NCBI RefSeq assembly: GCF_030684315.1
Contig: NC_081397.1
Span: forward strand, 9,238,001 to 9,302,000
Reading direction: 5' to 3'
Length of the DNA: 64,000 nucleotides
Source of the DNA: Stegostoma tigrinum
Taxonomy: Eukaryota
In this document: positions 14,218-55,779 of the stretch, one piece after another
Layout: every line of letters begins with the position of its first letter
Position numbering within the stretch: the first letter of the stretch is position 1
Position numbers and translations under genes: made by a program
Notes under the pieces: generated by a model
What the model saw: the letters and a program-made list of their open reading frames with translations, nothing else
What the model was told of the DNA's origin: nothing
The model's database searches: none

Positions 14218-14670
<453 letters not shown>

Positions 14671-14863
14671 TTATACCTTCGGGAGGAATGGGGGTGCGGC
14701 CATTGCTGATTGGTCACATTGTTCAGTATCTCCTAATGTCGTTTCAATGCCCAATCAGATATCTGCTTCACTCACCAATCCGGAGGGGGCCCGGGGAGGA
14801 GGCCGGAAAATCCCGGCGCCAAAGCATCAACCGCTTTCTTTCAAACTCGAAAAGCCCGCCAAT
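14671..14863 (-). promoter_or_regulatory. H2A promoter: TATAA, three CCAAT boxes, E2F/CHR module
   Basis: TATAA 14671-14675; CCAAT at ~14709, 14751 and 14775; TTTGGCGCC and TTGGCGGG...TTTGAA on the minus strand at 14812-14863. Confidence 0.7.
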
Positions 14864-16659: not shown

Positions 16660-16675
16660 GGCTCTTAAAAGAGCC
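16660..16675 (-). terminator. Histone 3' stem-loop (H2B copy 1)
   Basis: Minus strand GGCTCTTTTAAGAGCC ACCCA. Confidence 0.96.
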
Positions 16676-16715
16676 GTTGGGTTTTGGATGTGTTTTCTCT
16701 ACACAATGTGGGGTC

Positions 16716-17096
16716 TCACTTGGAGCTGGTGTACTTGGTCACCGCCTTTGTACCCTCCGACACGGCGTGCTTGGCCAGCTCCCCGGGCAGCAGCAGCCGC
16801 ACCGCGGTCTGGATCTCCCGGGAGCTGATGGTCCTGCGCTTGTTGTAATGGGCCAGGCGGGAAGCCTCCCCCGCGATACGCTCGAAAATATCCTTGACGA
16901 ACGAGTTCATGATGCTCATCGCCTTGGAGGAGATGCCGGTGTCGGGGTGAACCTGCTTCAGCACTTTGTAGATGTAGATAGAGTAACTTTCTTTCCTGGA
17001 TCGTTTCCTTTTCTTGCCGGCTTTCCCCGGCGCCTTCTTGATGATTTTCTTGGCGCCCTTCTTGGAAGGTTGCTGCGCTTTCTTCTCATCCGCCAT
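16716..17096 (-). CDS. H2B: Histone H2B
   Basis: [17 protein letters not shown]...[27 protein letters not shown]...[10 protein letters not shown], 126 aa. Confidence 0.98.
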
Positions 17097-17148
17097 ACTA
17101 ACAGTCACTTTCAGACACAAAATAAGCGAAAACAGGCTCGGAGCTCGC

Positions 17149-17260
17149 TTTTTATAGCCTGATCGCGTCAGCAATGCTAATGAGGGATGGAGGAAAGTCT
17201 TATTCATGATTGGGTAGTTTAAAAGAATGTCAAGCATGACAGCAGCCTCTCTGTGATTGG
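17149..17260 (-). promoter_or_regulatory. H2B promoter: TATA, octamer-like H2B box, two CCAAT
   Basis: TATAAAAA 17149-17156; CTCATTAGCAT 17174-17184 (one mismatch to ATTTGCAT); CCAAT 17209-17213 and 17256-17260; same layout in unit 2. Confidence 0.75.
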
Positions 17261-17659
17261 TTAGTTTGGGACACAATGTGAATCTGTCAGGATCTGCAAC
17301 GAAATGCGAGACACAAACCAAATTTTGAACACGGATCTAACTCCTAACTCACTCGAAAATCAACTGGTTATTGTCATTTAATTATATCTGGAACACAGTA
17401 TCTGTGAGATTTTAAATGTGGCAGTGTGTTTTATTCTGCTCATGACAGTCTTTTGTGCATAACATATTATTTTGTTTCATCTCTCTCTGAGTTCCGCAGG
17501 ACACTTGTGTCATTGAGAGATTCAGGTTTATTGAAGGATAGTTTTGTCCAATATCTGTCAGTCTTTCCTATGTGAAAATGCGAGTGCAGTTATCTATCCG
17601 TCCCTGTCTGTTTATGCAGTGTGAATGATTATCACTCTCTCACAATCTGTTCCTGTCAT

Positions 17660-20420
17660 ACTGTCATAGAGATGGATAGCACTCTTGGGTCCACCTCGGC
17701 CTTAAAAATCAGATTTCGTAAATTAATCTAGTCCCATTTACCAGCATTTGGCCGATATCGCTCTAAACCCTTCCTCATCCTGAAACCATCCAGAAGCCTT
17801 TTAAACGTTGTAATTGTCCCATCCTCCACCACTTCCTTTGGCAGTTCAGTCCAATTATGCACTACCCACTGCGAGCAAATGTTGCCCACCTTAGGTTATT
17901 TTTCTCACCTCTCACCTGAAACCCATGCCCTCTAGTTAGGGATTCCTCTACTCTGGGCAAAAGAACTTGATTATTCACCCTATCCATGCCCCTCATAATT
18001 TTATAATCTTCTGCAAGGTCTCCACTCAGCGTCCAACACTCCATGGAAAACAAGCCCCAGTAAGCCCTGTCTATTCAGTCTTTCCCGAAAGGCCAAGTCT
18101 CCGGCCATGGCAACAATCTTTTAAACATTTTCTGAACCCTTTCGAGTTTTAAAAAAACCCTTCCCCATTTTAAGGGGACACAAGACCCAAATGCAGTTTC
18201 TCAAAAGTAGCCGAACCAATGTTCTGTACAGCAGCAACATGACCTCCCAAACCATACATTCAATGCACTGACCAATAAAGGCAAGTGTATGAAATGCCTT
18301 CTTTGCTGACCTGTCTATCTGTAATTCTACTGTAAGGAGCTATGAACCTGCACTCAAAGACCCTTTGGTTTGGCTTCCCTGGAGCTTACCTGGAGCCTGC
18401 CAGTCCTGCCCTGATCTTCCCTGACAAAATGTAGCACCTCATGCTTATCAAGATTTAACTCCATCTGACAATCCCCAGCCCAGTGGTTCTTCGATCAAAG
18501 GTCCCATTGTTGTCTGAGGTCATACAGTCATACAGCATGGAGAAAGGCACTTTAGGTCAAACTGGTTCATGTTGACCACAGTGCCGATTCAGCTAGTTCC
18601 AATTGCCTGAATTTGGTCCATGTCCCTCTAAACCCTTGCTATTCAAATGTTTTTTTCAATGTTCCTATTGTACCTGCCTCAACCACTTTCTCTGATCACC
18701 TATTCCACATATGCACCACTCTCTCATGTCCTTCTTATACCTTTGCCCTCTAGTTTTCAATTCCCTATTCTTGCAGAAAAAATACACTGTATGCATTCAT
18801 CCTAACTGTCCTCTGATGATGTAACACACATCAATAAGGTCATACCTCATTCTCCTATGTTCCAAGGAATAAAGTACTCTCCTGGCTAATCACTCCCTAT
18901 AACTGAGGCTTCCTTGCCCTGGCAACATCCTCGTAAATCTTTTTTGCACACTTTCCAGTTTAACAATGACTTTCCTATAACAGGATGACCAAACTGTACA
19001 TGATCCTCCAAATGTGGCCTTACCAGCAACTTCTACAACTGTAACGTACGTCCCAACTCTTGTACTCAATGTTCCACCCAATGAAGGACAGCATGCTGAA
19101 TGCTTTCTTCACTACCCTGCCCACTTCTGACATCACTTTCAATGAACCATGTACTTGTATTCCCAGATGCCTCTGTTCCACAACACTCCTCAGGACCGGA
19201 ACACTTACTGTGCAAGTCCTACCTTGGTTTGACTTTCCAAAGTGCAAAACCTCACACTTATCTGAATTGAATTGCATTTTCCAATCCTCAGCCCACTTAC
19301 CCATCTGATCAAGATCCCTCTGTTATTTTTGACAAACTTCCTTGCTATCAACAATACCTTCTAATATTGTTCATTGGCAAACTTACCAATCTTAACTTGT
19401 ACATTCACATCCGGATCATTTATATAAATGACACATAACTAAGGTCACAGCACCAACCGTTGCGGCACACCATTAGTCACAGGCCTCCAGTCCAAGAAAC
19501 AACCTTCAACCATCACCCTCAGCTCCCTACCATCAAGTACATTTTGAATCCATTTAGCTAACTCCTCCTGTGAGCCATGCAACTAAACCTCCTCACTGTC
19601 TAGCCATGCAGGACTTTGTCAAAGGTCTTACTAAAGTCCACACAGACAACATCCACTCCCGACGCTTATCTATCCAAATGGTTACCTCTTTAAAAAACTC
19701 AAACATTTGTCAGACATGACTTCCAACTCGCAAATCCTTGCAGGCTATCCCTAATCAGACATTGACGATCCAAAGTTGGTTGATTCTGTCCCTCACTATC
19801 CTCTCCGATAGCTTACCTCTCACTGACATCAGGCTCACTGGCCTGTAGTTCCCTGGCTTGTCTTTGCTACCTTTCCTAAACAATGGAACAACATTACCCA
19901 CCCTCCAGTCTTCCAGAACTTCACCAGTGGCTAAAAATGAAGCAGAAATCTCTGCACGATCTCTGCAATTTCTTTCCTAGCCTCCCACATCATCCAAGGA
20001 CAGACTTGATCAGGCCTCGGGAATTCATCCACCTCAATGTGATCTAAGGCTGCAAACACCTCCTCTCTGGTAATATGTATGCAGTCTAAAAATATCTCCA
20101 CTTGTTTCTCTTATTTCCTTAGCATCCACGGTTCTCTCCTTAGTAAACACGGAGATGAAATATTCATTAAAAATCCCCTCCCCTGGCACCGCGATCTGCT
20201 GTGGCTCCACACATAGATCACCATGTTGACCTTTAAAGGGACATTTTCTCTCCTGAGCCACCCTTTTACTCTTAATATAGCTGTAGAACCTCTTGGGATT
20301 ATCTTTACCCTAATCTGCCAGATCCATCTCATACCCTCTTTTTGACCTTCTGATTTCCCTCTCAAGTGTTCTCTTACACTTTTTGGAGCTATCTAGAGAT
20401 TCACCTGAGTCTGATAGCTT
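17660..20420 (-). mobile_element. Mosaic of degenerate CR1 fragments
   Basis: MGKWAEDWKMQFNSDKCEVLHFG, LESVQKRFTRMLPG and FNEYFISVFTKE motifs. Confidence 0.85.
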
Positions 20421-20439
20421 AAACCCAATGTATTCCTCA

Positions 20440-24639: not shown

Positions 24640-25828
24640 CAGCACAGAAGGCATCCATTTGGGTCATCATGTCCATGCTGATCCAAACAACACCAGATAG
24701 CCATCTTCATCCCATTTTCCTGCACACATCCCATAGCCCTGCAGCTTACAGAACTTACGGGGGAGGTTCAGGTATGCTCTTAAAAGAGTTTAGAGTCTCT
24801 GCCTCCACCACCAACTCAGGCATGGTATTGGAGATACACACCTTCTTGTAAAAATGATTTTCCTCCCATCACCTCTAATCCTTCTGTCACTTCACTTTAA
24901 TCTATGACCAATGTTTTTTTTTAAATTCCCTACCAAGGGAAACATGTTCCTCCTATTTACTGTCTCTCGCTCCCCTTCCCAATTTCATACGCCTCAATCA
25001 TGGCACTGCTCAGTTAATGCTGTTCCAAGGAATACAACTCCAACCTCTCCAATCACACCTCGTAGCTGCAGCTCTCCAACCCTGGCAACGTTCTTGTAAA
25101 ACTTCTCCACACTCTCTCCCCAGCAATAACATCCTTCCTGTAATATGATGTCCAGAACAGCACACAATACCCCAGTTCCAGCTTCACCAGGGTCTTCTGC
25201 AGTTTCATCATTATCGCCCTACTTTTGTGTTCCAAACCTCTGCCAAAGTAGGACAGCATTATATACACCTTTTTAACAACCTTATCTATCTGTACTGCTA
25301 CCTTCATATTCCAGTGCACTTGCACACCAAGATGACTTGCTTCATCCGCCACACCACTGCCCCGCCACCTCTTGTCTTCCTATTTATTGTTTCACCTCCA
25401 GAAATGCATTACCTCACACTTATCAACGTTGAACTCCATGTGCCACTTACCTGCCCACGCCACAAAACCACTGATATCATTTCAGAGTTGATCGCTATCC
25501 TCTACACTACCCAAAACATGGTTATTTTTTGTGTTGTCTGCAAATTTCCAAATTGTGTCCCTCATGCTCAAGTCCAATTGTTAATGAATAAAACAAACAG
25601 AGATTCCAATAGCAAGCTGTGTGGAACACCACTTGAAACAGCTTTCCATTCATAAGGGCAGTCATTGACCATTACCATTTGATTCCTGTTGCTAAGCCAA
25701 CTTTGGTTCCAATTTAAACACATTGCTCTGTATCCCATGTGCTTTTCTATTTTTGATTAGTCTGCCATGTGGTACTAAGTCAAATGACTCACTAAAATCC
25801 ATGTAGTCAACACCCATTACACTGCCCT
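24640..25828 (-). mobile_element. Degenerate CR1 RT fragment
   Basis: HLGVQVHWNMKVAVQIDKVVKK...YCVLFWTSYYRKDV. Confidence 0.85.
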
Positions 25829-25829
25829 C

Positions 25830-30259: not shown

Positions 30260-31932
30260 AGAAGGGGATGGGGAGAGGGAACTGGAATAAATAGGGAGAG
30301 AGGGGGAGGCGGACCGAAGATGGAGAGTAAAGAAGATAGGTGGAGAGAGTGTAGGTGGGGAGGTAGGGAGGGGATAGGTCAGTCCAGGGAAGACGGACAG
30401 GTCAAGGAGGTGGGATGAGGTTAGTAGGTAGCTGGGGGTGCGGCTTGGGGCGGGAGGAAGGGATGGGTGAGAGGAAGAGCCGGTTAGGGAGGCAGAGACA
30501 GGTTGGACTGGTTTTGGGATGCAGTGGGTGGGGGGGAAGAGCTGGGCTGGTTGTGTGGTGCAGTGGGGAGAGGCGACGAACTAGGCTGGTTTAGGGATGC
30601 AGTAGGGGAAGGGGAGATTTTGAAACTGGTGAAGTCCACATTGATACCATATGGCTGCAGGGTTCCCAGGCAGAATATGAGTTGCTGTTCCTGCAACCTT
30701 CGGGTGGCATCATTGTGGCAATGCAGGAGGCCCATGATGGACATGTCATCTAGAGAATGGGAGGGGGAGTGGAAATGGTTTGCAACTGGGAGGTGCAGTT
30801 GTTTGTTGCGAACTGAGCGGAGGTGTTCTGCAAAGCGGTCCCCAAGTCTCTACTTGGTTTCCCCAATGTAGAGGAAGCCGCACCGGGTACAGTGGATGCA
30901 ATATACCACATTGGCAGATGTGCAGGTGAACCTCTGCTTAATGTGCAATGTCATCTTGGGGTCTGGGATAGGGGTGAGGGAGGAGGTGTGGGGACAAGTG
31001 TAGCATTTCCTGCGGTTGCAGCGGAAGGTGCCGGGTGTGGTGGGTTTGGAGGGCAGTGTGGACCGAACAAGGGAGTCACGGAGAGAGTGGTCTCTCCGGA
31101 AAGCAGACAGGGGAGGGGATGGAAAAATGTCTTGGGTGGTCGGGTCGGATTGTAAATGGCGGAAGTGTCGGAGGATGATGCGTTGTATCCGGAGGTTGGT
31201 GGGGTGGTGTGTGAGAACGAGGGGGATCCTCTTGGGGCGGTTGTGGCGGGGGCGGGGTGTGAGGGATGTGTTGCGGGAAATACGGGAGACGCGGTCAAGG
31301 GCATTCTCGATCACTGTGGGGGGAAAGTTGCGGTCCTTAAAGAACTTGGACATCTGGGATGTGCGGGAGTGGAATGTCTGATCATGGGAGCAGATGCGGT
31401 GGAGGCGGAGGAATTGGGAGTAGGGGATGGAATTTTTGCAGGAGGGTGGGTGGGAGGAGGTGTATTGGGCCTCCTGCACTGCCACAATGATGCCACCCAA
31501 AGCTTGCAGGAACAGCAACTCATATTCCGCCTGGGGACCCTGCAGCCATATGGTATCAATGTGGACTTCACCAGTTTCAAAATCTCCCCTTCCCCTACTG
31601 CATCCCTAAACCAGCCTAGTTCGTCCCCTCTCCCCACTGCACCACACAACCAGCCCAGCTCTTCCCCCCCACCCACTGCATCCCAAAACCAGTCCAACCT
31701 GTCTCTGCCTCCCTAACCGGCTCTTCCTCTCACCCATCCCTTCCTCCCACCCCAAGCCGCACCCCCAGCAACCTCATCCCACCTCCTTGACCTGTCCGTC
31801 TTCCCTGGACTGACCTATCCCCTCCCTACCTCCTCACCTATACTCTCTCCACCTATCTTCTTTACTCTCCATCTTCGGTCCGCCTCCCCCTCTCTCCCTA
31901 TTTATTCCAGTTCCCTCTCCCCATCCCCCTCT

Positions 31933-31960: not shown

Positions 31961-33303
31961 AGCTTTTGTGCTCCTGAGATGCTGCTTGGCCTGCTGTGTT
32001 CATCCAGCCTCACATTTTATTATCTTGGAATTCTCCAGCATCTGCAGTTCCCATTATGTCTCATCATGGTTCCAGTCAGTTTCTGCTATGTGCTGGCTTG
32101 AGCATATTTACTAATCTGTCACTTTCAGTTTCTCCTGTATATCTGACAGTGGAGTTACTGATCTCTACCCGTTTCTGCTTTATGAATGCGTGAAAGCATT
32201 TATCATTCTCTCCCCATCAGTTTAAGCTATGTGAACGAATGCATTTATCATTCTGTCCCTGTCAGTGTCTGTAATGAGAATATTCAAACGTGTTTGTGCA
32301 ATTATTATTCTATCCCTGATAGTTTCTGCTCTGTGAATATGTGCTTCAGTTATCAAAAAATACCTGTCAGTTTCTACTTAGGGAATGTGTGAACACTGTT
32401 TTTCATTTGTACCTGTCAGCTTTGGTTTTGTGAATAATTGTCTGCAGTAATTAATCTGTACCTGCCAGAGCTTTCACGTGAAGATGTGAATATGATCATT
32501 AATCTGTCCCTCTCAGTTTCTGCTCAGTAATATGTGTGTTTAGTCATCAATCTGCAGCCATCACTTCCTGCCTCGTGAATGCGGGACTGTATTATGAATA
32601 TGTCTAAGGTTCCTGAGTATATTTGTAGGTTAGGTCGTGGATACTGTGGTTGGTTCGCTTGCCGAGCTGGTTCATTCATTTGCAGATGTTTCATGACCCC
32701 GATGGGTAATATCATCGGAAGCTGCAATGAAATGTTTGCAAGGTAATGAACCAGCTCAGCAAGCAGTCCAATTACGTGTTACGAAAATATGCCTGTCAAA
32801 TTCATCTATGAATATCCAAGTGTCGCTATCAGTCTCTCAATGTTTATGCTTTTTCCTTCTATAACGTGTGCATGCATTTCTCAATTTTTCCCAGTTTTTT
32901 GTGGTCTGAATGTGTCCAATTATAATTCTGTCCTGATCATTTTCTGATATGCGAATATGAGAGTGTACTTATCACTATGTGCGTGTCAGTTTCTTCCCTA
33001 TGGCTGTGAGAGTGTATTTACCCACTTGTCCCAGTCAGATCCTGCTCTGTAAATCTGAGTGACTAGTTATTAACCTCTTCCTGTCGCTATCTGATTAGTG
33101 AATGTGTGAATGCACTTGTCATTCTCTCCCTGTCAAGTTTCTGCTGTGTGAATGTGCAAGTGAAGTTCTCAACCTGTGACTGTCAGTTTCAATCAAATAT
33201 TCTACTTTTAGAAGTTAGAACATAGAACATAGAACAGTACAGCACCAAACAGGCCCTTCAGCCCACAATGTTGTGCCGACCATTGATCCTCATGGATGCA
33301 CCC

Positions 33304-36300
33304 TCAAATTTCTGTGACCATATGCATGTCCAGCAGTCTCTTAAATGACCCCAATGACCTTGCTTCCACAACTGCTGCTGGCAACGCATTCCATGCTCTC
33401 ACAACTCTCTGCGTAAAGAACCTGCCTCTGACATCCCCTCTATACTTTCCACCAACCAGCTTAAAACTATGACCCCTCGTGCTAGCCATTTCTGCCCTGG
33501 GAAATAGTCTCTGGCTATCGACTCTATCTATGCCTCTCATTATCTTGTATACCTCAATTAGGTCCCCTCTCCTCCTCCTTTTCTCCAATGAAAAGAGACC
33601 GAGCTCAGTCAACCTCTCTTCATAAGATAAGCCCTCCAGTCCAGGCAGCATCCTGGTAAACCTCCTCTGAACCCTCTCCAAAGCATCCACATCTTTCCTA
33701 TAATAGGGCGCCCAGAACTGGACGCAGTATTCCAAGTGCGGTCTAACCAAAGTTTTATAGAGCTGCAACAAGATCTCACGACTCTTAAACTCAATCCCCC
33801 TGTTAATGAAAGCCAAAACACCATATGCTTTCTTAACAACCCTGTCCACTTGGGTGGCCATTTTAAGGGATCTATGTAGCTGCACACCAAGATCCCTCTG
33901 TTCCTCCACGCTGCCAAGAATCCTATCCTTAATCCTGTACTCAGCTTTCAAATTCGACCTTCCAAAATGCATCACCTCGCATTTATCCAGGTTGAACTCC
34001 ATCTGCCACCTCTCAGCCCATCTCTGCATCCTGTCAATGTCCCGCTGCAGCCTACAACAGCCCTCTACACTGTCAACGACACCTCCGACCTTTGTGTCGT
34101 CTGCAAACTTGCTGACCCATCCTTCAATTCCCTCGTCCAAGTCATTAATAAAAATTACAAACAGTAGAGGCCCAAGGACAGAGCCCTGTGGAACCCCACT
34201 CACCACTGACTTCCAGGCAGAATATTTTCCTTCTACTACCACTCGCTGTCTTCTGTTGGCCAGCCAATTCTGTATCCAAGCAGCTAAGTTCCCCTGTATC
34301 CCATTCCTCCTGACCTTCTGAATGAGCCTTCCATGGGGAACCTTATCAAATGCCTTACTGAAGTCCATATACACCACATCCACAGCTTGACCCTCATCAA
34401 CCTTACTAGTCACATCCTCAAAAAACTCGATAAGGTTTGTAAGGCATGACCTACCCCTCACAAAGCCGTGTTGACTGTATTTGATCAAGCCATGCTCTTC
34501 CAGATGGTCATAAATCTTATCCCTCAGAATCCTTTCTAACACCTTGCAGACGACAGACGTGAGACTTACCGGTCTATAATTGCCGGGGATTTCCCTATTT
34601 CCTTTCTTGAAGAGAGGAATTACATTTGCCTCTTTCCAGTCCTCAGGTACGACTCCAGTGGAGAGCGAGGATGCAAAGATCTTCGCAAGTGGCGAAGCAA
34701 TTGCATTTCTCGCTTCCCAAAGCAGCCGAGGACAAATCTGATCCGGGCCTGGCGACTTGTCAATCTTAATGTTTGACAAAATTTTCAGTACATCAGCTTC
34801 CTCTATCTCTATCCATTCCAGCATGCACACCTGCTCTTCAAAGGTTTCATTCACTACACAGGTCGTTTCTTTCGTAAAGACAGAAGCAAAAAACTCATTT
34901 AGGGCTTCCCCTACCTCCTCAGGCTCCACACACAAGTTCCCTATGCTATCCCTGATCGGCCCTACTCTTTCTTTGACCATTCTCTTATTCCTCACGTAAG
35001 TGTAAAATGCCTTTGTGTTTTCCCGGATTCCTTCTGCCAAGCCTTTCTCGTGCCCCCTCCTGGCTCTCCTCAGACCATTTTTGAGCTCCTTCCTTGCCTG
35101 CATGTAATCCTCTCTAGCTGAACTTGACCCTAGCTTCCTCCACCTTATGTAAGCTACCTTCTTACTTTGCACTAGAAGCTCCACCGCTCTCGTCATCCAA
35201 GGTTCCTTTATCTTACCCCGTCTTGCCTGTCTCAGAGGGACATATTTACTCATCACTCCCAACAACTGTTCCTTAAACCATCTCCACATGTCTATAGTTC
35301 CCTTACCATGGAACAACTGCTCCCAGTCCATGCTTCCTAACTCGTGTCTAATCGCATCATAGTTTCCTCTTCCCCAATTAAATATCCTCCCATTCTGCCT
35401 AATCCTCTCCTTCTCCATAGCTATGTAGAATGAGAGAGTGTTATGGTCACTATCACCAAAATGCTCTCCCACCACAAGATCTGATACCTGCCCCGGCTCG
35501 TTTCCGAGCACCAAGTCTAGAATGGCCTCTCCCCTCGTCGGCCTGTCAACGTACTGCGTTAGGAAACCCTCCTGAACACACCTTACAAAAACAGCTCCAT
35601 TCAAATCTTCTGCTCGAAGGAGGTTCCAATCAATATTAGGAAAGTTAAAGTCACCCATTACAACAACCCTACTGCGTCCACACTTTTCCAAAATCTGTCG
35701 ACCTATGCTTTCTACAATCTCCCTGCTGCTATTGGGGGGCCTGTAGTAAACCCCTAACGAGGTGACTACTCCCTTGCTGCTCCTAATTTCCACCCATACT
35801 GACTCAGTAGGCAGATCTTCCTCGACAATGGAAGCTTCTGTAGCTGTGATACCCTCTCTGATTAGTAGTGCTACACCCCCTCCTCTTTTTCCCCCCTCCC
35901 TATTCTTTTTAAATGTTCTAAACCCTGGAATATCCAGCAACCATTCCAGCCCATGAGAAACCCATGTCTCTGTTATGGCCACAACATCATAGCACCAGGT
36001 ACTGATCCATGCTCTAAGTTCATCACTTTTATTCCTGATACTCCTTGCATTAAAGCAAACACACTTTAACCGATCCCTTGGTTCCTTCCCAGGAAAATCC
36101 TTCCCACTAGCTGGTCTACCTCTTGCTACTGCCTCACCTGCATCAACGCTCACCTCTGGTATACAGCTCAGGTTCCCACCCCCCTGCCATACTAGTTTAA
36201 ACCCTCTCGAACTACTCGAGCAAACCTTCCACCCAGGACATTGGTCCCCTTCCAGTTCAGATGCAACCCGTCCTTCTTGTACAGGTCCCACCTTCCCCAG

Positions 36301-36312
36301 AAGGCATCCCAA
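33304..36312 (-). CDS. CR1 ORF2: APE endonuclease plus reverse transcriptase (true start uncertain)
   Basis: NARS, ITETW, YRPP, GDFN, LDLVL and SDH endonuclease motifs; QGSVLGP and FADD RT motifs; no stops over 1002 codons; the track start at 36312 is TTG. Confidence 0.95.
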   Translation of the reverse strand: MGCLLGKVGPVQEGRVASELEGDQCPGWKVCSSSSRGFKLVWQGGGNLSCIPEVSVDAGEAVARGRPASGKDFPGKEPRDRLKCVCFNARSIRNKSDELRAWISTWCYDVVAITETWVSHGLEWLLDIPGFRTFKKNREGGKRGGGVALLIREGITATEASIVEEDLPTESVWVEIRSSKGVVTSLGVYYRPPNSSREIVESIGRQILEKCGRSRVVVMGDFNFPNIDWNLLRAEDLNGAVFVRCVQEGFLTQYVDRPTRGEAILDLVLGNEPGQVSDLVVGEHFGDSDHNTLSFYIAMEKERIRQNGRIFNWGRGNYDAIRHELGSMDWEQLFHGKGTIDMWRWFKEQLLGVMSKYVPLRQARRGKIKEPWMTRAVELLVQSKKVAYIRWRKLGSSSAREDYMQARKELKNGLRRARRGHEKGLAEGIRENTKAFYTYVRNKRMVKERVGPIRDSIGNLCVEPEEVGEALNEFFASVFTKETTCVVNETFEEQVCMLEWIEIEEADVLKILSNIKIDKSPGPDQICPRLLWEARNAIASPLAKIFASSLSTGVVPEDWKEANVIPLFKKGNREIPGNYRPVSLTSVVCKVLERILRDKIYDHLEEHGLIKYSQHGFVRGRSCLTNLIEFFEDVTSKVDEGQAVDVVYMDFSKAFDKVPHGRLIQKVRRNGIQGNLAAWIQNWLANRRQRVVVEGKYSAWKSVVSGVPQGSVLGPLLFVIFINDLDEGIEGWVSKFADDTKVGGVVDSVEGCCRLQRDIDRMQRWAERWQMEFNLDKCEVMHFGRSNLKAEYRIKDRILGSVEEQRDLGVQLHRSLKMATQVDRVVKKAYGVLAFINRGIEFKSREILLQLYKTLVRPHLEYCVQFWAPYYRKDVDALERVQRRFTRMLPGLEGLSYEERLTELGLFSLEKRRRRGDLIEVYKIMRGIDRVDSQRLFPRAEMASTRGHSFKLVGGKYRGDVRGRFFTQRVVRAWNALPAAVVEARSLGSFKRLLDMHMVTEI

Positions 36313-37091
36313 TTATCAACATATCTGAAACCCTCCCTCCTACACCAGCTGCGTAGCCACGTGTTCAGCTGCGCCCGCTCCCTGTTCCTCACCTCGCTAT
36401 CTCGTGGCACCGGTAGTAAACCAGAGAACACTACTCTGTTCGTCCTGCTCTGCAGCTTCCATCCTAACTCCCTGAAATCACTTTTTATATCCTCAAACCT
36501 ATTTCTGGCTATATCATTTGTGCCAATATGTAACACGATTTCTGGCTGTTCACCCTCCCCTTTCAGAACTTTATACACCCGATCGGAGACGTCCCGGACC
36601 CTGGCACCAGGGAGGCAACATACCTTCCGGGAATCCCGATCTTGCCCACAAAATCTCCTGTCGATTCCCCTAACTATCGAGTCCCCTACCACGAGTACTT
36701 TTCTATTCTGCCCCCTTCCCTTCTTTGCCACAGTGTCAGGCTCAGTGCCAGAGAACTGACTACTATGGCTTTCCTCTGGTAGGTCAACCCCCCCAGCAGT
36801 ATCCAAAACGGTATACTTATTGCTGAGGGGAATGCCCACAGGGGATCTCTGCACTGTCTGTCTGTCCCCTTTCCTCCCCCTAACTGTAACCCATCTATCC
36901 TCGTCCTGAGCCTTAGGAGTGACCAACTCCCGATAACTCCTCTCAATTACCCCCTCTGCCTCCCGAATGATCCGTAGTTCATCCAGCTCCAGCTCCATTT
37001 CCCTAACACGGTTTTCAAGGAGCTGTAGCTGGGTGCACTTCCCGCAGATGTAGCCAGCGGAGACGTGTGCCACATCTCCCAACTGCCACAT
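36192..37091 (-). CDS. CR1 ORF1: zinc finger/leucine zipper plus SGNH esterase-like domain
   Basis: CGKC and heptad leucines, VVGDSIVR, CLPGA, HIGTND and DGLHLN motifs. Confidence 0.92.
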   Translation of the reverse strand: MWQLGDVAHVSAGYICGKCTQLQLLENRVREMELELDELRIIREAEGVIERSYRELVTPKAQDEDRWVTVRGRKGDRQTVQRSPVGIPLSNKYTVLDTAGGVDLPEESHSSQFSGTEPDTVAKKGRGQNRKVLVVGDSIVRGIDRRFCGQDRDSRKVCCLPGARVRDVSDRVYKVLKGEGEQPEIVLHIGTNDIARNRFEDIKSDFRELGWKLQSRTNRVVFSGLLPVPRDSEVRNRERAQLNTWLRSWCRREGFRYVDNWDAFWGRWDLYKKDGLHLNWKGTNVLGGRFARVVREGLN

Positions 37092-37662
37092 TTTGCAGGT
37101 TTTCTTTGATGTTCAAGTATCTGCTCCACAACACAAATCAGATTTTACTTGTTGCCAAATGTGTAAAGTGCTAGAAATGAAACTGTTAGAGCTTTTAGCA
37201 TTGAATGTCTCTGGCAGAGTGCCTGAGGGCTGAGGATATTCCACAATATTCAGGCTGTGGTACAGTTGAAATTTTATTCTGGGATTGGTCACTGTCTTGT
37301 CTAAATGTGCTCAGAGTTTAATATTCATTTTCTTTGAAAGTTCACCATACAATATCCTCTTCAATTTATTGGAACAGTTCATGAGAATTCTGCTAGAAAA
37401 GTCAACAGCTTTTTTTTCTCTGATGGAGCGACCAAATGATATTTAGTTTATGATCACAGCAATTACCATGGATTTAAATGCATGGGAATTGGACTCCTTA
37501 GCTCAAATTCTGTTCTGTTTATCTCTTATCATGAAAAGCTAGCTCTCTGATCTGAAATCCATGACAAGAAATCATTTTGAATGTTACATGTTCTGAGGCT
37601 TGCAGTGTATGTGATTTTCATGGCTGTTACATGTTGTAGCACGTGTTGGGATTGTGCAGGTA

Positions 37663-37796
37663 NNNNNNNNNNNNNNNNNNNNNNNNNNNNNNNNNNNNNN
37701 NNNNNNNNNNNNNNNNNNNNNNNNNNNNNNNNNNNNNNNNNNNNNNNNNNNNNNNNNNNNNNNNNNNNNNNNNNNNNNNNNNNNNNNNNNNNNNNN
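37663..37796. other. Assembly gap
   Basis: 134 N. Confidence 1.
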
Positions 37797-42779: not shown

Positions 42780-44810
42780 TCAAGCCAGTATTATTCAGTA
42801 AATTGTGTTGGGAAAATTGGTAGTACTGAAGGCTTGGAAGTACCGGGGACTGATAACTTATGTGCCAGAGCTCTTAGTGGCCATATTGGTGATGATGTTC
42901 CAAACCTTCATAGGTGCTACAATAATTTCCAAAGATTGGAGGGTAGCTAATGTCAACAATCTATTTGTAAAGGGAGTGTTGAGGTAAAACTTGTAATTTT
43001 AGACCATTCAGCCTGCAGGAAAAAAATGCAGATAATTGGAATGAAATGTCAGGATCAGACAGAGTCAGCATGGATTTGAAAGAACTGTTCCTCTGCTGTA
43101 CTATTCAATGTTCCCAGCCTGATTAATCTACTGGATTAGGGATGTTAAAGCAGAGCTGTTCATTTTAATTTACCAAAAAGCTTTTTTAACAAAATCCCAC
43201 AAAAGATGTTATCGTGTTAACACCAAGGAACTGTGATTGGTGCAAAGCATTCAGAATGATTAAAAAAAAAACTCTAGCTGGATAACAAGAGATATGGAGA
43301 GGGAAGAAATGATTTTTTTTTTCCTCAATGACAAGAATCAGTTTTAGGATCAAACGTCTTCACAACATGTTCACAGTAATTTAGATATTTGTAACAAGAC
43401 CCGGGTGTCTCCTACGCTAATCACTGAAAGTAAGCATGCAGATGCACCAGGCAATGAGGAAGGCGAGAGGTATGTTGGCCTTTGTGGAAAGTGAATTTGA
43501 GTACAGGAGAAACAGTGAATTGTGACAATTTATCAGGGCATCTGTGAGGCAACACATAGAATACTGAGAGCAGATTTGGCCTCCTTACTGAGGAAGGATG
43601 GTGTTGCTGTGAAGGTAATTTTAACAGGCAGATTGCTGGGATGGAAGGAGAGGTTGAATTAGTTGTGAATATATGTGCTGAAAGTTAGAAGAATGAGGGA
43701 TTCTCTTAGAAATCTGTAAGACACTGTCAGACCGAGAAAGTGTAAATGCAGAAAAATATTCCTGTTGGTAGGAGTCATATTTTTAGGAGAAAGGATAACC
43801 CTTTCATGACTGAGAAGCCGAGAGTCTACTTAATTCAGAAAGTGGTGATCTTGTGAAATTCCCTGCCACAGAAATCAGCCACGTTCAACACATTGTATGA
43901 GTTCAGTATGGTGCAGGTGTAGCACTTGTGGCCAAAGGGAAGCAAGGTATAATTGGCTGAATGGCAAGTGACAGAGAGTGAAGATGGAGGGTTGTTTTTT
44001 CGACTGTAGGCCTGTCATCCAGAGGTGTTCCCCAGGGATTGGGACTGAGTCCTCTTTCGCTTGTCATTATATAAATGATATGAATGAGAAGAGAGAAGTC
44101 ATGGCAAACACGTTTGTAGATGATAACAAACTCAGCAGCATAGTATTCAGAGGAGAATGAGTCCTAAGATATCAAATGGATCTCGATCCTTTACCTCGAT
44201 GGGCTGCAAAATGACAGATAGAATTCAATCTGGATGAATGCAACATTTTGCATTTTGGAGCAACTTACAGAAGTAGGCCTTGAATGATTAATGGTAGGTC
44301 CTTGGTAGTGTTGTAGGACCTATCCTGTTGAAGTCTGCATCACTTCTAAACGGGTTGTTTATGAAGGCATGCTTACCTTCATTGCACAGTCCTTTGAGAT
44401 TATGAGGTGGGTAGTCACATTGAGGTTGAGAGGTCACCTTATAGAAGTGTTTAAAATAATGAGGGGATGAGACAGTGTTGACTGACGTTGTTCTTTTCCT
44501 GAGTTGTGGGTGGCGGCTGGGGAGGAATTGAAGACTAGGGCGAACATTTTTCATGTGACGGGAGAGAAATTTTTAAAAAGACACTTGCGTTTTGTTTTTG
44601 AACAGAGCATGGGCGCATGTGGAATGAAGCTCCTGATGAAATCGTCTCTATGCCTACAACTATAACATTAAAACGACATTTGGATAAGTACATAAATAAG
44701 AAAGGAAATAGGCCAAGGACAGATCGGTGGAATTAGTTCAGTCTGGCATTATATTCGCCATGTTATGGTCGGACTGAAGGTTATGCATCCTTGTTGAATG
44801 TCTCCATGTG
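42780..44810 (+). mobile_element. Highly degenerate CR1 fragments
   Basis: DWRVANV and FVDDNKL remnants, plus CR1 3' UTR-like ends. Confidence 0.7.
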
Positions 44811-45731: not shown

Positions 45732-45877
45732 GACAGGCAGCAGGAGCAGGGAGCTGAGGGCAGGTTGTCTCCGCGCCGTCCGCTCGCTGCCTTTAAGTTG
45801 CTCAGTGCCGCCACCAGCAGCTTCATTGCTGACCCAGTTCAGTTTGACAGAGAGAGATTCAGCGCAGAGTTCCCGAC

Positions 45878-46516
45878 ATGAGCGACAGTACAGCCGCCGA
45901 AACGGCTCCTCCAGCCTCCGCTAGCACCAAACCCAAGTCTCCCAAGAAGAAGAAGGCGGCGGCTTCCAGGAAGAAACCAGCCGGTCCCGGGTTGGGCGAG
46001 CGGATTGTGAAGATTGTCGGGGAGAACAGCGATCGGAAGGGGACGTCTCTGGTCGCTATAAAGAAGGCGCTGCAGAGAAGCGGGGTCAATGTGGAGAAGC
46101 AAAATGCACAGATCAGGATGGCTGCCAAGAGGTGCCTGGCGAAAGGCTCCCTGGTTCTGGTGAAGGGCCAGGGCGTCTCCGGCTCCTTCAAACTCGCAAA
46201 GAATCCAGTCAAGGCAAAAGTGGGAAAGAGGGCGAGACCAGCAGCAGCCGCCAAGAAAGCAGCCGTGAAGAAAACAACGAGCAAGAAGGTGGCAGCGAAA
46301 AAATCCCCAGCCAAGAAAGCAACAGGCAAGAAAGCGGGCGGCAAGAAGGCAGCAACGCCAAAGAAAGCGGCGAAGAAAGCAGCGCCGAAGAAAAAGACTC
46401 CCGTGAAGAAGGTGATAAAGACCAAGAGCCCCAAGGCCGCAAAGCCGGCCCCGAAATCGAGGAAACCGAAGGCCAAGCCCAAAGCGAAAGTGACCAAGAA
46501 AGCAGCAAAGAAATGA
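45878..46516 (+). CDS. H1: Histone H1 (linker histone)
   Basis: 212 aa; globular domain (SLVAIKKAL...VEK...KGSLV...GVSGSFKL), Lys/Ala/Pro-rich tail with S/TPxK motifs. Confidence 0.97.
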   Translation: MSDSTAAETAPPASASTKPKSPKKKKAAASRKKPAGPGLGERIVKIVGENSDRKGTSLVAIKKALQRSGVNVEKQNAQIRMAAKRCLAKGSLVLVKGQGVSGSFKLAKNPVKAKVGKRARPAAAAKKAAVKKTTSKKVAAKKSPAKKATGKKAGGKKAATPKKAAKKAAPKKKTPVKKVIKTKSPKAAKPAPKSRKPKAKPKAKVTKKAAKK

Positions 46517-46552
46517 AGCAGTCCGTGCAACGTGTAACGACCTGAACCCAAA

Positions 46553-46568
46553 GGCTCTTCTCAGAGCC
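46553..46568 (+). terminator. Histone 3' stem-loop (H1)
   Basis: CCAAA GGCTCTTCTCAGAGCC ACCA, then AGGAGAGAG HDE-like element. Confidence 0.95.
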
Positions 46569-46917
46569 ACCACATCTTTCAGGAGAGAGCTGAGCCCGGA
46601 TCAAATGATCCCTGTCCTAGCTCCGAGTGCAGGAATAAATTAGACACTAATTTATGTGAATAACCGTTCCGTATTTACCCACCGGATTTACACTCAGCCC
46701 CTCTTCCATACTCTACAATGTGTGAGTGTGAGGTCCTGCTCACATGGACCATAGGCTCTCGTGCTTTGTCAGTTCATGTCAGTCTGCTTTTCACACATGT
46801 AGGGAGAGAGTCTCAAAGAGACTAACACGCCCTGAAACTCCTCTTCACCACACAATCCCCATCAAATGATTTTGTCTCATTCAACTGGGGGAATAGAAAC
46901 TGACGTGGAAATTGAAG

Positions 46918-47380
46918 CAAGACAAAATTTGAGGCTGGATGAACACAGCAGGCCCAGCAGCATCTCAGGAGCACGAAAGCTGACGTTTTGGGCCTAGACC
47001 CTTCATCAGAGAGGGGATGGGGAGAGGGAACTGGAATAAATAGGGAGAGAGGGGGAGGCGGACCGAAGATGGAGAGAAAAGAAGATAGGTGGAGAGGAGA
47101 GTACAGGTGGGGAGGTAGGGAGGGGAAAGGTCAGTCCAGGGAAGACGGACAGGTCAAGGAGGTGGGATGAGGTTAGTAGGAGATGGAGGTGCGGCTTGAT
47201 GTGGGAAGAAGGGATGGGTGAGAGGAAGAACAGGTTAGGGAGGCATAGACAGGTTGGACTGGTTTTGGGATACAGTGGGTGGAGGGAAGAGCTGGGCTGG
47301 TGGTGTGGTGCAGTGGGGGGAGGGAAGAACTGGAATGGTTTTGGGATGCAGTTGGGGAAGGGGAGATTTTGAAGCTGGTA
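46918..47380 (-). mobile_element. Penelope-like terminal fragment
   Basis: Matches 30167-30630; hammerhead GAAAC mutated to AAAAC. Confidence 0.85.
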
Positions 47381-47404
47381 TAGCCCACATTGATAATGGA
47401 AGCA

Positions 47405-47626
47405 GAGGTAATGGGAACTGCAGATGTTGGAGAATTCCAAGATCATAAAATGTGAGGCTGGATGAACACAGCAGGCCAAGCAGCATCTCAGGAGCACAAA
47501 AGCTGACGTTTCGGGCCTAGACCCTTCATCAGAGAGGGCGAAGGGTCTAGGCCCGAAACGTCAGCTTTTGTGCTCCCGAGATGCTGCTTGGCCTGCTGTG
47601 TTCATCCAGCCTCACATTTTATTATC
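47405..47626. mobile_element. Penelope-derived foldback insertion with 15-bp TSD
   Basis: 90-bp arms 47438-47527/47540-47629 (2 mismatches, 12-nt spacer); TTGATAATGGAAGCA at 47390-47404 and 47627-47641; intact hammerhead core on the minus strand 47505-47532. Confidence 0.9.
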
Positions 47627-48327
47627 TTGATAATGGAAGCAACCGTGTTGTCTTGTTAAGAAAGGCCGGATCATGGGCGTTCAATTGTATCGCAACTGCT
47701 TAGAAAAAAATCCTGTTTTTGTCTGCTTCGAACATGAAGCTCGAGACCGCAGTTTTTTAATCCCGAAAGTTGTGTTCACTGCCGTTGTGGAGAATAGTTT
47801 TATTTACAGATCTAGTTGGGGGCTGGAGTTAACATATATTGCTGTATTTGTATTTCATTAACCGTTACAGGAATGATATTTCGTTCAGTTTTGATTCTGG
47901 GACACCCGTGGAAGTTTTAATTTACTTTCCATCTGCCTGTTGCAGGAAGCAATGCCAAACGCCCTCCCCCTTTCCTCACGCCTGTTACAGACAGATGAGG
48001 CAGTCCTGTCGTCCTGTCTCCGCTGATGTAGATTTTATTCAAAAAATTTAGTTTGCAAAGTACACGATTTGATCGGAGTCGGAGTTTATTTTCCTTTTAA
48101 ATATTTACCTTAAACTCAGGATCGCGAGGGTAAAATCGGCGGGCTTTTTGGAAGTGACCAACTGTCATTTCAATTTAAACCAAAAAATATTTTTCTGCCT
48201 TTTCAGAACCTTCCGGAGCTGTTTCTCATGGGGTTGAGGGACGGGACTCTAACAAATCCCAGCTCTAGGGCGAGCTCTCCATTCCCTTAAATAGGCAGCG
48301 CCGCCACAGGTTCAGCATTGAGAGTAG

Positions 48328-48762
<435 letters not shown>

Positions 48763-48806
48763 ACGGAGCGTGCCCGGCCCTGCACATTCACCCCGAGAAA
48801 CACAAC

Positions 48807-48822
48807 GGCTCTTTTCAGAGCC
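48807..48822 (+). terminator. Histone 3' stem-loop (H3 copy 2)
   Basis: GGCTCTTTTCAGAGCC. Confidence 0.95.
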
Positions 48823-49530
48823 ACGACACTATCCAGAGAGAGAGAGAACAGCAATCATTAGACACGATGGACTGTAGTTAATATAAACCCACAGCATACT
48901 ATTGATGTTATGTCTCAATGTCACCGCTGTTACAGAAACTTAGTGCATCTCTCAGGCCCAATAATTCCCCCGAGTTGTGAAACAGGTTTATAAGTGCTCA
49001 GTAATCACAACACAGTTCAAGTACTGTACCTAACATTTTATAAATTTCCGATTCAAACGCCTTTGCTTGCCAATTGCTTCCCTTGGCGTTTCCCCAGCTG
49101 CAACTGAAGTTGACGAATGAGGATGTTGGGAAACAGTGGCCAATTCGAAAAGCGCACCAAAATATACAAACGATTTTTATATTTCTGATCGTGCAATTGA
49201 AATTTTGCCTCATCTCACACGAGTGTATTCATTCGATCCTCTGAGGAGGCTCGGTTTAGTCTCGAACGGCCCCTTTCTTGCGGGGAGTTAGCGCATGTCT
49301 TTTGTTCCCTGTCGGCATAGTGATAGGGAAACCGCTGTGAGTTACTATTTAAAGTCGCTGTCCCTGCAGTAAAACTTTATTACTCCCCTCCGACAGCTGT
49401 TCTAGTTTTCTTTAGGTTAAGGCAAAAAGGAAACGGATATTTTTGCGCATTTAGTCCCGTGTTTGCACATAAAATTAAAGTAAACCAACCAGCAGTGACA
49501 GTCTAGCTGCTTTTCACTGACTTTGTGGGT

Positions 49531-49546
49531 GGCTCTTAAAAGAGCC
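49531..49546 (-). terminator. Histone 3' stem-loop (H2A copy 2)
   Basis: Minus strand GGCTCTTTTAAGAGCC ACCCA. Confidence 0.96.
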
Positions 49547-49576
49547 TTTGGGTTGTCAGGTTACAGAACGGTCTCT

Positions 49577-50029
<453 letters not shown>

Positions 50030-51216
50030 TTATACCTTCGGGAGGAATGGGGGTGCGGCCATTGCTGATTGGTCACATTGTTCAGTATCTCCTAATGTCG
50101 TTTCAATGCCCAATCAGATATCTGCTTCCCTCACCAATCCGGAGAGGGCCCGGGGAGGAGGCCGGAAAATCCCGGCGCCAAATCATCAACCGCTTTCTTT
50201 CAAACTCGAAAAGCCCGCCAATAGTTTCAAAACGGGTAGAAGTTTTACAAAGAAGAATGCGTTCATTCTTGAGATAATTTACTTTTAGAATACGCCTGTA
50301 TACTTCACACAATCTCTCTCTGATTCCCAGGCCTAAGTGAATCGATGTGATTATGATTTTGCTTTTTACCCTGATCCTTAAGAATAAACAGATGGCAGAA
50401 AAAGAGCCCGGCGTAAGTTGCTCTGAACAGATGCATTTTATTTCACATCAGCACCCGGATACATTGATAAAAGTATCACACAGCTGTTTCTTTGCCGTTG
50501 AACTCAATACTGCTTTAAACAATATTTTACAATCGCGCTCCCTATTGCACAAGATCAACAATATTTCTACTTTTGCGATGCCAGTCCGGCAGCTGTTCTG
50601 CTTTCATCTCGGTTCACTTTGAAATTTTCCCACCGACAGCAGAAAGCCTCATTTATAGCTTTCTGCAAAACCCGGGGAGATTTGAAAATAAAACAAAATT
50701 CCTCGGCGCGGCAAACGTAGGAAAATACCGGCGCCAAATCATCAACCGTTTTCTTACCGATTTGAAAAGCCCGCCAATATGGGCAATACGAGGAAGACGT
50801 TTTACATGAATGCGTATGATTTAATTTCCTTTTAGATTACAAATTGATCCTTGACATAACCTCTCTCGTTCTCATTCAAAACATCAGCGTCTTCCGAAAA
50901 TTTTGTGATTATTGTGTGAGATCAGACTTCCCTGTTAATCTCGGTTCATTTTGAAAGACTCTACCCGACAACGGGGAACCCCACAGACTGCATTCTGAAA
51001 ATAAATTCACGTAGAGATTTGGAAATTGAAAAACACAAATCGCACGATACTTCTGTTCGTATGTCTCAAATACGGGCTTATTGGTTTTGGTTACCACGAG
51101 AGAGAGTTGGGGTCGTTACCCACAGGGACAAAATCCTACAACGTGTACGAAATTGTAAAACTTAGTTTTTTTTTTCCTAAGAGGAATGAATAATTTAATT
51201 TTTCGCCGAACTTAGT

Positions 51217-51955
51217 TAGAACATAGAACATAACAGCACAGTACAGACCCTTCGGCCCTCGATGTTGTGCCGACCTGTCATACCGATTTCAAGCCCATCT
51301 AACCTACACTATTCCATGTACGTCCATATGCTTATCCAAAGACGATTTAAAAGATACCTAAAGCTGGAGAATCTACTACCGTTGCAGGCAAAGCGTTCCA
51401 TTCCCTTACTACTCTGAGTAAAGAAACTACCTCTGACATCTGTCCTGTATCTTTCACCCCTCAATTTAAAGCTATGCCCCCTCGTGCTCGCTGTCACCAT
51501 CCTATGAAAAAGGCTCTCCCTATCCACCCTATCTAATCCTCTGATTATTTTATATGTTTCAATTCAGTCACCTCTCAACCACCTTCTCTGTAATGAAAAC
51601 AGCCTCAAGTCCCTCAGCCTTTCCTCGTAAAACGTTCCCTCCATACCAGGCAACATCCCAGTAAATCTCTGCACCCTTTCCTCAGCTTCCACATCCTTCT
51701 TATAATGCGGTGACCAGAACTGTGCACAATACTCCAAGTGCGACCGCACCAGAGTTGTGTCCAGCTTCACCATAACCTCTTGGTTCCAGAACTCGATCCC
51801 TCTATTAATAAAAGCTAAAACACTGTATGCCTTCTTAACAGCCCTGTCAACCTGGGTGGCAACTTTCAAGGATCTGTATACATGGACACCGAGATCTCTC
51901 TGCTCATCTACACTGCCATGAATCTTACCATAAGCCCAGTACTTTGCCTTCCGGT
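51217..51955 (-). mobile_element. CR1 3' fragment in the H2A-H2B spacer
   Basis: EQRDLGVHVYRSLKVATQVDRAVKKAY...; AGAACAT repeats at 51218; absent from the unit 1 spacer. Confidence 0.9.
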
Positions 51956-52709
51956 TCATTTTCATATTGCAAGTGCACCCTGAAATATTTATCAAAAACT
52001 CAACGCTCCTGCGGGTGAGAACGGTGAAACTTCAGTTTAAAGTTGCCGTCCCTCTTGTCGTTGATCAGACTTCACACCTGATATGGCAATCCAGCAGCTA
52101 TACTAGCTTTATCTCAGTTCATTTTGAAAGCCTCTTATCGACAGCTGAGAGCCTCATTTACAGTGTTCTGCAAAAATCAGACGACGTCAGTGGCGTTTTG
52201 AAAATTTAATTTAAAAAAAGAACAAATAAATTTCAAAATCTATTCGTGGGACGACAACAGTTACTTTTCTTTCCGGGAGTGAAACTCGTGTTTCATACCC
52301 CACGGGGCACTGTACCTTCTGCCCTGATCAAGGGTTAAAGAATAACTGGAAAATATAGAATTTGCTGAAAAGTGACTCGGTGTCGATAAATATGCTCTCT
52401 ATACAGGCCGGGAAAAGAGACTGGGAAATACGCAACCGACAATAAAGGGCAGAGGGTCTGGGATCAAACGAAATTATTTTTATAATTAAAAACAAAGCTT
52501 AGCGACATTCATTATCCAGACCCAGAATCAATTGTAAAGCTAAAACTTCATTTGAAAAGAAGGGTCTCGCCCCGAAACGTCAATTTACCTGCTTCTCTGA
52601 TGCTGTTTGGTTTGCTGTGGTCATCCAGCTCCACATCTTGTCGTCTCAGATTCTCCAGCATCGGCTATCCAAGTTAATACGGTTCAGCTGTTTCAGTGAG
52701 GTAGTGGGT

Positions 52710-52725
52710 GGCTCTTAAAAGAGCC
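52710..52725 (-). terminator. Histone 3' stem-loop (H2B copy 2)
   Basis: Minus strand GGCTCTTTTAAGAGCC ACCCA. Confidence 0.96.
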
Positions 52726-52765
52726 TTTGGGTTTTGGATGTGTTTTTTCAACACAATGTGGGGTC

Positions 52766-53146
52766 TCACTTGGAGCTGGTGTACTTGGTCACCGCCTTTG
52801 TACCCTCCGACACGGCGTGTTTGGCCAGCTCCCCGGGCAGCAGCAGCCGCACCGCGGTCTGGATCTCCCGGGAGCTGATGGTCCTGCGCTTGTTGTAATG
52901 GGCCAGGCGGGAAGCCTCCCCTGCGATACGCTCGAAAATATCCTTGACGAACGAGTTCATGATGCTCATCGCCTTGGAGGAGATGCCGGTGTCGGGGTGA
53001 ACCTGCTTCATCACTTTGTAGATGTAGATAGAGTAACTTTCTTTCCTGGATCGTTTCCTTTTCTTGCCGGCTTTGCCCGGCGCCTTCTTGATGATTTTCT
53101 TGGCGCCCTTCTTGGAGGCTTGCTGCGCTTTCTTCTCATCTGGCAT
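52766..53146 (-). CDS. H2B: Histone H2B
   Basis: [17 protein letters not shown]...[10 protein letters not shown], 126 aa. Confidence 0.98.
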
Positions 53147-55770: not shown

Positions 55771-55779
55771 GTTCAAGTG

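Follow-up and report, generated by a model that had tools for sequence, protein, structure and literature searches.

How the second open reading frame (ORF2) of a CR1 retrotransposon comes to be translated is the question raised by one copy of such an element on the minus strand of a 64,000-nucleotide stretch of the Stegostoma tigrinum genome, which is referred to here, at its full length, as the window. In the available sections of PMC3708506 and PMC5009743, the translation of LINE ORF2 is treated as an open question, to which reinitiation is the usual answer, and the available part of PMC11835228 describes CR1 as outnumbering every other interspersed repeat in the chicken genome. Gene callers start the ORF2 of CR1 at arbitrary Mets. 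The reading favoured here, which we consider probable, is that a programmed -1 ribosomal frameshift at U UUA AAC would produce an ORF1-ORF2 fusion.

The element and its ORF1-ORF2 junction

The features of the element are given in window coordinates:

33216..37100, minus strand: CR1-type LINE copy of ~3.9 kb, with an approximate 5' boundary
33216..33234, minus strand: TTCTATG microsatellite at the 3' terminus of the CR1 copy
36192..37112, minus strand: ORF1, 306 codons from stop to stop, with a zinc-finger remnant, a likely coiled coil and an SGNH/GDSL esterase
33304..36312, minus strand: ORF2 frame, 1002 codons from stop to stop, intact
33304..36201, minus strand: ORF2 read from the heptamer in the -1 frame, 965 open codons through the endonuclease and the reverse transcriptase (RT)
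about 35443-36054, minus strand: APE endonuclease of ORF2 (Pfam PF03372, aa 87-290)
about 33886-34608, minus strand: RT of ORF2 (Pfam PF00078, aa 569-809)
36195..36201, minus strand: heptamer T TTA AAC, in the canonical X XXY YYZ phase with ORF1
36198..36204, minus strand: second canonical heptamer, G GGT TTA, overlapping the first and one codon upstream
36192..36194, minus strand: ORF1 stop TAG, adjoining the heptamer (TAA in loci L019 and L023)
36174..36188, minus strand: G-rich tract (11 G in 15 nt) spanning +7 to +21 past the heptamer, a candidate 3' stimulator
36143..36190, minus strand: third-frame ORF of 15 codons, with its ATG at 36190, 1 nt past the ORF1 stop
35656..35658, minus strand: first ATG in the ORF2 frame, codon 219, inside the endonuclease

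The copy is truncated at its 5' end just inside ORF1, within the zinc finger, and lacks the native start Met and the first Cys; no convincing target-site duplication was found at it, the best match being 5 nt. Elements of the CR1 type end in short tandem repeats at the 3' terminus, with neither poly(A) nor LTR, and the same is seen in this copy, whose terminal TTCTATG repeats are presumably typical of CR1. Within ORF1, the SGNH/GDSL esterase region occupies about 36246-36689 (minus strand), with a Pfam match to the GDSL esterase PF13472 at aa 142-289 and a profile match to the ZfL2-1 ORF1 esterase 4C1B (E 2e-42), and the top homologue, at 99% identity, is recorded under Stegostoma tigrinum. 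The zinc finger and SGNH esterase of ORF1, truncated at the N-terminus, and the APE endonuclease followed by the RT in ORF2 (Pfam) correspond to the esterase-type CR1; this class assignment rests on the domains of both ORFs together with the esterase tree, where the element falls among ORF1s of shark, turtle and bird and away from the DGLHP class.

The window also holds further CR1/L2-like ORF2 fragments, found as 3' pieces without ORF1 at 1777-4187, 17788-20432, 24773-25829, 43403-44572, 51217-51956, 53798-55771 and 61201-62126. Two similar histone gene clusters (11789-17336 and 45848-53311) were recognised from translations, with ORFs for H2A (14218-14670, 49577-50029), H2B (16716-17336, 52766-53311) and H1 (45848-46516), and H3 and H4 appear on the strand opposite the listed ORFs. 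Another ORF, at 30850-31605 (minus strand), ends in ...YCIHCTRCGFLYIGETK, a terminus that we take to resemble Penelope-like elements in their GIY-YIG endonuclease region, and an assembly gap (N run, 37662-37796) lies ~550 nt upstream of the 5' end of the CR1 element.

The original prediction had read the ORF1 terminus on the minus strand as GAG GGT TTA AAC TAG, with TTTAAAC at 36201-36195 in the X XXY YYZ phase and abutting the stop, and had taken the -1 frame (FKLVW) for the intact frame of ORF2, all of which was confirmed, with this frame continuing as FKLVWQGGG. As in canonical frameshift signals, ORF2 can be read without interruption in the -1 frame starting at the heptamer and has no start codon upstream. 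Its lack of any ATG until 35658 (codon 219), beyond the NARS, ITETW and YRPP motifs, had also been pointed out correctly; this codon is the sole Met in the first 260 of ORF2, and the linker of ~45 aa ahead of the endonuclease is free of Met. The first in-frame AUG lies ~530 nt 3' of the ORF1 stop and the nearest AUG is out of frame, an arrangement unlike that of the SART1/L1 type, in which an in-frame AUG overlaps the ORF1 stop or lies near it. The ATG just past the stop belongs, as had been stated, to the third frame and to an ORF of 15 codons, which was found in none of the 10 other junctions described below.

Canonical heptamers in the reading phase number five in the 1271 codons of both ORFs, and two of them fall within the final three codons of ORF1, although the overlapping G GGT TTA is not a general feature, as the residue preceding Leu varies among relatives. 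Given Gly-Leu-Asn, the choice of GGT TTA AAC has p=0.009 under the codon use of the element itself, in which TTA accounts for 10 of 110 Leu codons.

Conservation of the junction in proteins and DNA

Among the best 120 of 148 ORF1 homologues, among whose named sources are sharks, rays, coelacanth, mormyrid fish, frogs, turtles, lizards and a hummingbird, 92 carry the motif D[GR]xH[LP], and 79 of these 92 end in Leu-Asn-stop (LN), nearly all of them at a distance of precisely 26 aa from the DG motif; with or without the motif, the ending is found in 84 of the 120. A profile search on representatives at 50% identity (best 150; 94 with the motif, including one false RT match) gave endings of 45 LN, 6 GN, 1 Ser-Lys-Asn and 2 Ser-Asn, all six GN enders being Gln-Gly-Asn. 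In these representatives LN remains at the stop whether the tail behind the DG motif has 25, 26, 27, 32 or 39 aa, and it therefore tracks the stop and not the fold, while the DGLHP-type (L2-like) esterases, taken as a control, end in LN in one of eight cases. Read back from protein into codons, Gln-Gly-Asn would fit G GGA AAC, a Gln codon being able to close with G, and Ser-Lys-Asn would fit A AAA AAC; of the four heptamers that the available part of PMC5009743 names as most prone to shifting, three are U_UUA_AAC, G_GGA_AAC and A_AAA_AAC.

Immediately before LN, 11-12 different residues of diverse chemistry occur, and the amino acids for which no codon ends in T (E, Q, K, M and W) occupy this position in 3 of 68 distinct tails and in 1 of 45 representatives; a single residue further upstream, the figures are 38 of 68 and 14 of 45. 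Given that positions -6, -7 and -9 are likewise poor in these residues (3, 4 and 4 of 68), the argument from depletion is weakened.

A quick tree of 83 esterase cores, from which the tails were left out, places LN in 36 of the 38 rows of the branch that holds the named vertebrate sequences and in none of the seven rows (six of them DGLHP) of the L2-like clade. A second branch mixes LN (11), GN (6), KN (1) and other ends (20), GN being scattered with five changes for six rows, and several distant esterase-ORF1 clades, amounting to 29 of the 83 rows, are without such an ending. As the branches differ in this way in their LN, GN and KN content, the signal is widespread and not universal.

Some of these homologues deserve a comment of their own. 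The branch of esterase ORF1s with Gln-Gly-Asn or Ser-Lys-Asn ends (P0301, P0311, P0316, P0322, P0327, P0331 and P0337) and the P0347, P0350 and P0363 families, in which LN follows longer tails, suggest that esterase-type CR1 elements with the same signal may exist outside vertebrates. The same ORF1 type occurs in a teleost, Paramormyrops kingsleyae (P0054), which the quick tree pairs with a softshell turtle row, near a coelacanth row, and for which horizontal transfer and a relic lineage are candidate readings. Finally, shark-like CR1 ORF1 and ORF2 proteins are filed under Pseudomonas aeruginosa and Carnobacterium maltaromaticum (P0006 and P0123), on contigs of 3-4 kb, and are likely to be host contamination of bacterial assemblies.

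At the DNA level, a search pattern built from ORF1 motifs upstream of the junction, with the junction itself excluded, matched 29 metagenome loci, of which 13 were CR1-like, 15 had no tblastn hit and one was a weak, non-CR1 GDSL match (L025). L007 and L017, which diverge before the junction, and L029, which ends before it, were left out of the count, and the remaining 10 junctions, mostly in decayed copies, belong to L002 and to nine bird-like contigs that share one sample id. Five of them have an exact TTTAAAC and four have it with one mismatch, and in L009 a deletion has damaged it; Leu is encoded by TTA in 7/10 and Asn by AAC in 9/10, and the preceding wobble base is T in 8/10. The codon after the heptamer is TAG in five and TAA in two, with CAG, TGG or TGA in the remainder. 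The expectation that TTTAAAC would be conserved at synonymous positions was thus borne out beyond the shark family, by proteins and by a small DNA sample of 10 loci, 9 of them from one sample id. The -1 frame is open from the heptamer into the endonuclease in L002, L006 and L009, with no Met before the NARS-type motif, and an in-frame ATG ahead of the endonuclease, which had been named as one of the observations that would tell against the prediction, is present neither in the window copy nor in L002 or L006.

Chimeric protein predictions that carry FKL (in one case LKL) in the ORF2 frame at the junction number 12 of 251 proteins, from a ray, a tortoise, a wall lizard, an ibis, a stork, a godwit and others, and, as LN-stop stands in one frame and FKL in the other, the nucleotides T TTA AAY are therefore fixed. 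One such record, P0186, shares 97% of its residues with P0363 as far as RYL, after which P0363 continues with LN-stop and P0186 with KLVGQGG, close to the KLVWQGGG of the shark, into the endonuclease without a Met. P0186 is a single record in a distant branch of the quick tree, most readily taken for a copy that carries a one-base indel and not for a naturally fused family; a weak search among longer proteins (8000 candidates scored) found no natural esterase-endonuclease-RT fusion with several members among its 11 hits.

Divergent contigs have loose ends at 36206 (119 in X1, 80 in X10) and at 36171 (67 in X1, 55 in X10), and, because these ends pile up at the two positions, other subfamilies have in common a conserved island of 36 nt around the heptamer. 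Among 40 variants listed of 225, none falls inside the island, and the six listed in the linker create no in-frame ATG. The sequencing runs consist of assembled contigs, including X15 and X16, whose RNA origin is a guess and which have no bearing on expression. No match turned up in viral contigs (five scans), plasmids or phages, and 23 matches in genome contigs were dismissed as chance.

A frameshift mechanism and its rivals

In the mechanism proposed here, ribosomes completing ORF1 would pause at the heptamer, where most of them would terminate and release ORF1p, and a minority would re-pair one base back and read on into the ORF2 frame. The product would be an ORF1-endonuclease-RT fusion, of about 306 + 963 = 1269 aa for the truncated window copy, and the outcome would be a high ratio of ORF1p to ORF2p, as with gag and gag-pol, and a replicase built into ORF1p oligomers. 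The anatomy of the junction and the conservation of its signal across esterase-type CR1 elements are firm, and both support the fusion by -1 frameshift that was originally suggested; from these we infer the shift itself, its rate and the working of the fusion as a replicase. The available sections of PMC3708506 argue that the functions of ORF1 require its synthesis apart from ORF2, which counts against a fusion.

The usual second element of a frameshift signal is a structure 5-9 nt 3' of the heptamer (PMC3542737, available part), for which a hairpin and a G-quadruplex had been put forward at this junction. The hairpin is indeed present in the predicted fold of the window copy, although it is no more stable than shuffled sequences (z 0.06 over 80 nt), is not shared by other loci and starts ~3 nt past the heptamer, which is too near, and with z values of 0.06, 0.01, -0.54 and 0.67 against shuffles it was rejected. 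The G-quadruplex did not hold, being absent from the minimum-energy fold of the window copy, where only a two-tier pattern is possible; it enters the fold of 2 of 10 junctions, and a three-tier pattern is found in none. No stem-loop is common to the 11 junctions folded (21 folds), z falls below -2 in one only and the L002 junction is almost unstructured; the predictions, which covered nested folds and G-quadruplexes, gave no stimulatory stem-loop 5-9 nt downstream. Rfam had no match at the junction. A long-range duplex between the G tract and the region coding for CCLPG, 430 nt upstream (-25 kcal/mol), was also rejected, as 10 of 40 shuffles equalled it and it was not repeated elsewhere.

What does recur 3' of the heptamer across the junctions is the immediate stop and a G-rich tract. 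A content of 11 G in 15 is attained by 0.13% of the 15-nt windows of the element, and a purine- and G-rich tract lies at +7 to +21 in the 10 other loci, with 6-10 G of 15. We suggest tentatively that the pause may come from the adjacent stop and the G-rich tract, acting as sequence or bound by protein, and not from a classical pseudoknot, and this is the weakest step of the mechanism.

Translation could, on the other hand, stop at the UAG and resume in the ORF2 frame, either from a near-cognate codon or, in certain families, from an AUG of the linker; what is conserved would then be a termination/reinitiation signal. LINE precedent exists, as reinitiation has been proposed for L1 and shown for SART1 (available sections of PMC5009743 and PMC3708506), and the initiation of L1 ORF2 is thought to be independent of AUG (PMC5009743, available part), because of which a missing AUG alone proves nothing. 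The window copy offers the in-frame near-cognates CUG at 36171 and GUG at 36153; a linker Met is present in 8 of the 11 chimeric proteins whose linker was measurable and in turtle and lizard ORF2 predictions, and 15 sea-turtle predictions begin at a Met ~24 aa before the endonuclease motif. Given these linker Mets, reinitiation is conceivable in some families, where it could coexist with frameshifting. The N-terminal Mets of records from metagenome sources were not counted as AUGs; they may stand for GTG or TTG that a gene caller turned into Met. Reinitiation nevertheless leaves unexplained the exact X XXY YYZ phase, the choice of TTA and AAC, the constant -1 relation and the swap to Gln-Gly-Asn or Lys-Asn endings, and the linker Mets vary in place, with none before the endonuclease motif in the window copy, L002, L006, L009, P0186, P0205 and P0222. 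We regard it as an unlikely account of the junction.

The heptamer might also be the by-product of two overlapping protein constraints, with Leu-Asn needed at the C-terminus of ORF1p and Phe-Lys-Leu at the N-terminus of ORF2p, a reading that we hold to be highly improbable, even though L and N are invariant in an alignment of 26 sequences (rows picked from the homologues) and almost every vertebrate copy has its stop 26 aa from the DG motif, close to where the last helix ends. Tails of 25-39 aa all place LN at the terminus, its replacement by GN or KN is non-conservative and L2-like esterases are mostly without it, and FKL, which sits 35-109 aa ahead of the endonuclease motif in a linker that shows no other conservation, would be translated only by ribosomes entering from ORF1, because it has no start codon. 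Very little probability is likewise given to a role at the RNA or DNA level, whether as a splice acceptor (CTAG) for an ORF2 mRNA, as a site of polymerase or RT slippage on T3A3 or as a packaging or processing signal. The TAG could serve as an acceptor AG, and a few single genomic copies that carry a 1-nt indel, either in the heptamer or immediately ahead of it (P0186, P0033 and P0130), speak for such a role; the splice acceptor was rejected, however, given that no polypyrimidine tract plus AG occurs in the 300 nt upstream or in the 200 nt downstream and that the TAA of L019 and L023 retains the stop and abolishes the AG. No joint at 36192 was seen among 15 listed of 85 joints, which is weak evidence as the joints are from contigs, and runs of three bases are short for polymerase slippage.

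The programmed -1 frameshift also admits a wider reading, which as one joint claim we consider conceivable and rather doubtful. Esterase-type CR1 elements from sharks to birds, and a wider, probably invertebrate, branch, would share the frameshift, which would have been kept since the origin of jawed vertebrates at least, with U UUA AAC, G GGA AAC and A AAA AAC interchangeable, and which would be driven by the stop and the G tract, without a pseudoknot, to give an uncleaved esterase-endonuclease-RT replicase. A gag-pol-like fusion, if true, would alter the annotation of CR1 ORF2, would tie an esterase and oligomer module to the replicase and would bear on the design of a CR1 retrotransposition assay that works. 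In that case there would also be a very widespread -1 frameshift of vertebrate genomes, seemingly without a classical stimulator.

Comparison with known systems

The closest description is that of CR1 subgroup 7, with ORF1 type IVB, which resembles the window element in its zinc finger/leucine zipper and esterase ORF1 and its APE and RT ORF2, and the available text of PMC4120745 mentions no frameshift or junction signal for it; this ORF1 type is given there as exclusively vertebrate, whereas here the relatives ending in LN, GN or KN form a separate branch. The available parts of PMC5006619, PMC3905857, PMC11835228, PMC4255032, PMC11203168, PMC13708176 and PMC8665684 contain no report of a CR1 frameshift, and those of PMC5009743 discuss HeT-A and TART and do not mention CR1. 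No report of a CR1 frameshift signal was found in the literature searched, as far as its available text extends, older CR1 papers lying outside that search. The chicken and turtle CR1 papers of 1997 and notes in Repbase or Dfam may already have noted the overlap or proposed a frameshift, and the newness of the signal is provisional.

The ORF1p esterase of zebrafish ZfL2-1 (PDB 4C1B) is homologous to that of CR1 ORF1 (E 2e-42), although the Leu-Asn end is for the most part missing from its DGLHP class (present in 1 of 8), unlike the shark CR1. L1 and SART1 have a bicistronic LINE RNA and a low output of ORF2, as CR1 would, and differ at the junction, where L1 has a spacer, with AUG-independent initiation considered likely, and SART1 an overlapping UAAUG (PMC5009743 and PMC3708506, available sections), whereas CR1 has no in-frame AUG and its frames overlap at the slippery site. 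In the APE-type non-LTR elements TRE5-A and TRE3-A of Dictyostelium, a -1 frameshift is required for ORF2 according to a figure legend in the available part of a review (PMC5911963); they belong to another clade, have an unrelated ORF1 and are likened to CR1 through one review sentence.

Viral -1 frameshifting, as in the coronavirus IBV (U_UUA_AAC) and in retroviral gag-pol, has the identical heptamer and the same X_XXY_YYZ phase as CR1 (PMC3542737, available part), and in both a structural ORF is followed, in the -1 frame, by one for the polymerase (PMC3542737 and PMC5009743, available parts). CR1 differs from the viral systems in that no stable conserved stem-loop or pseudoknot was found 5-9 nt downstream, in that Pfam found no protease domain to cleave the fusion and in that the host is a non-LTR retrotransposon. 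A stop directly abutting the heptamer is also known from Rous sarcoma virus and equine arteritis virus. The CR1 junction is a genuine feature of these elements, conserved over great evolutionary depth, and most likely it would work like viral -1 frameshifting, yet without the stimulatory structure in the folds examined.
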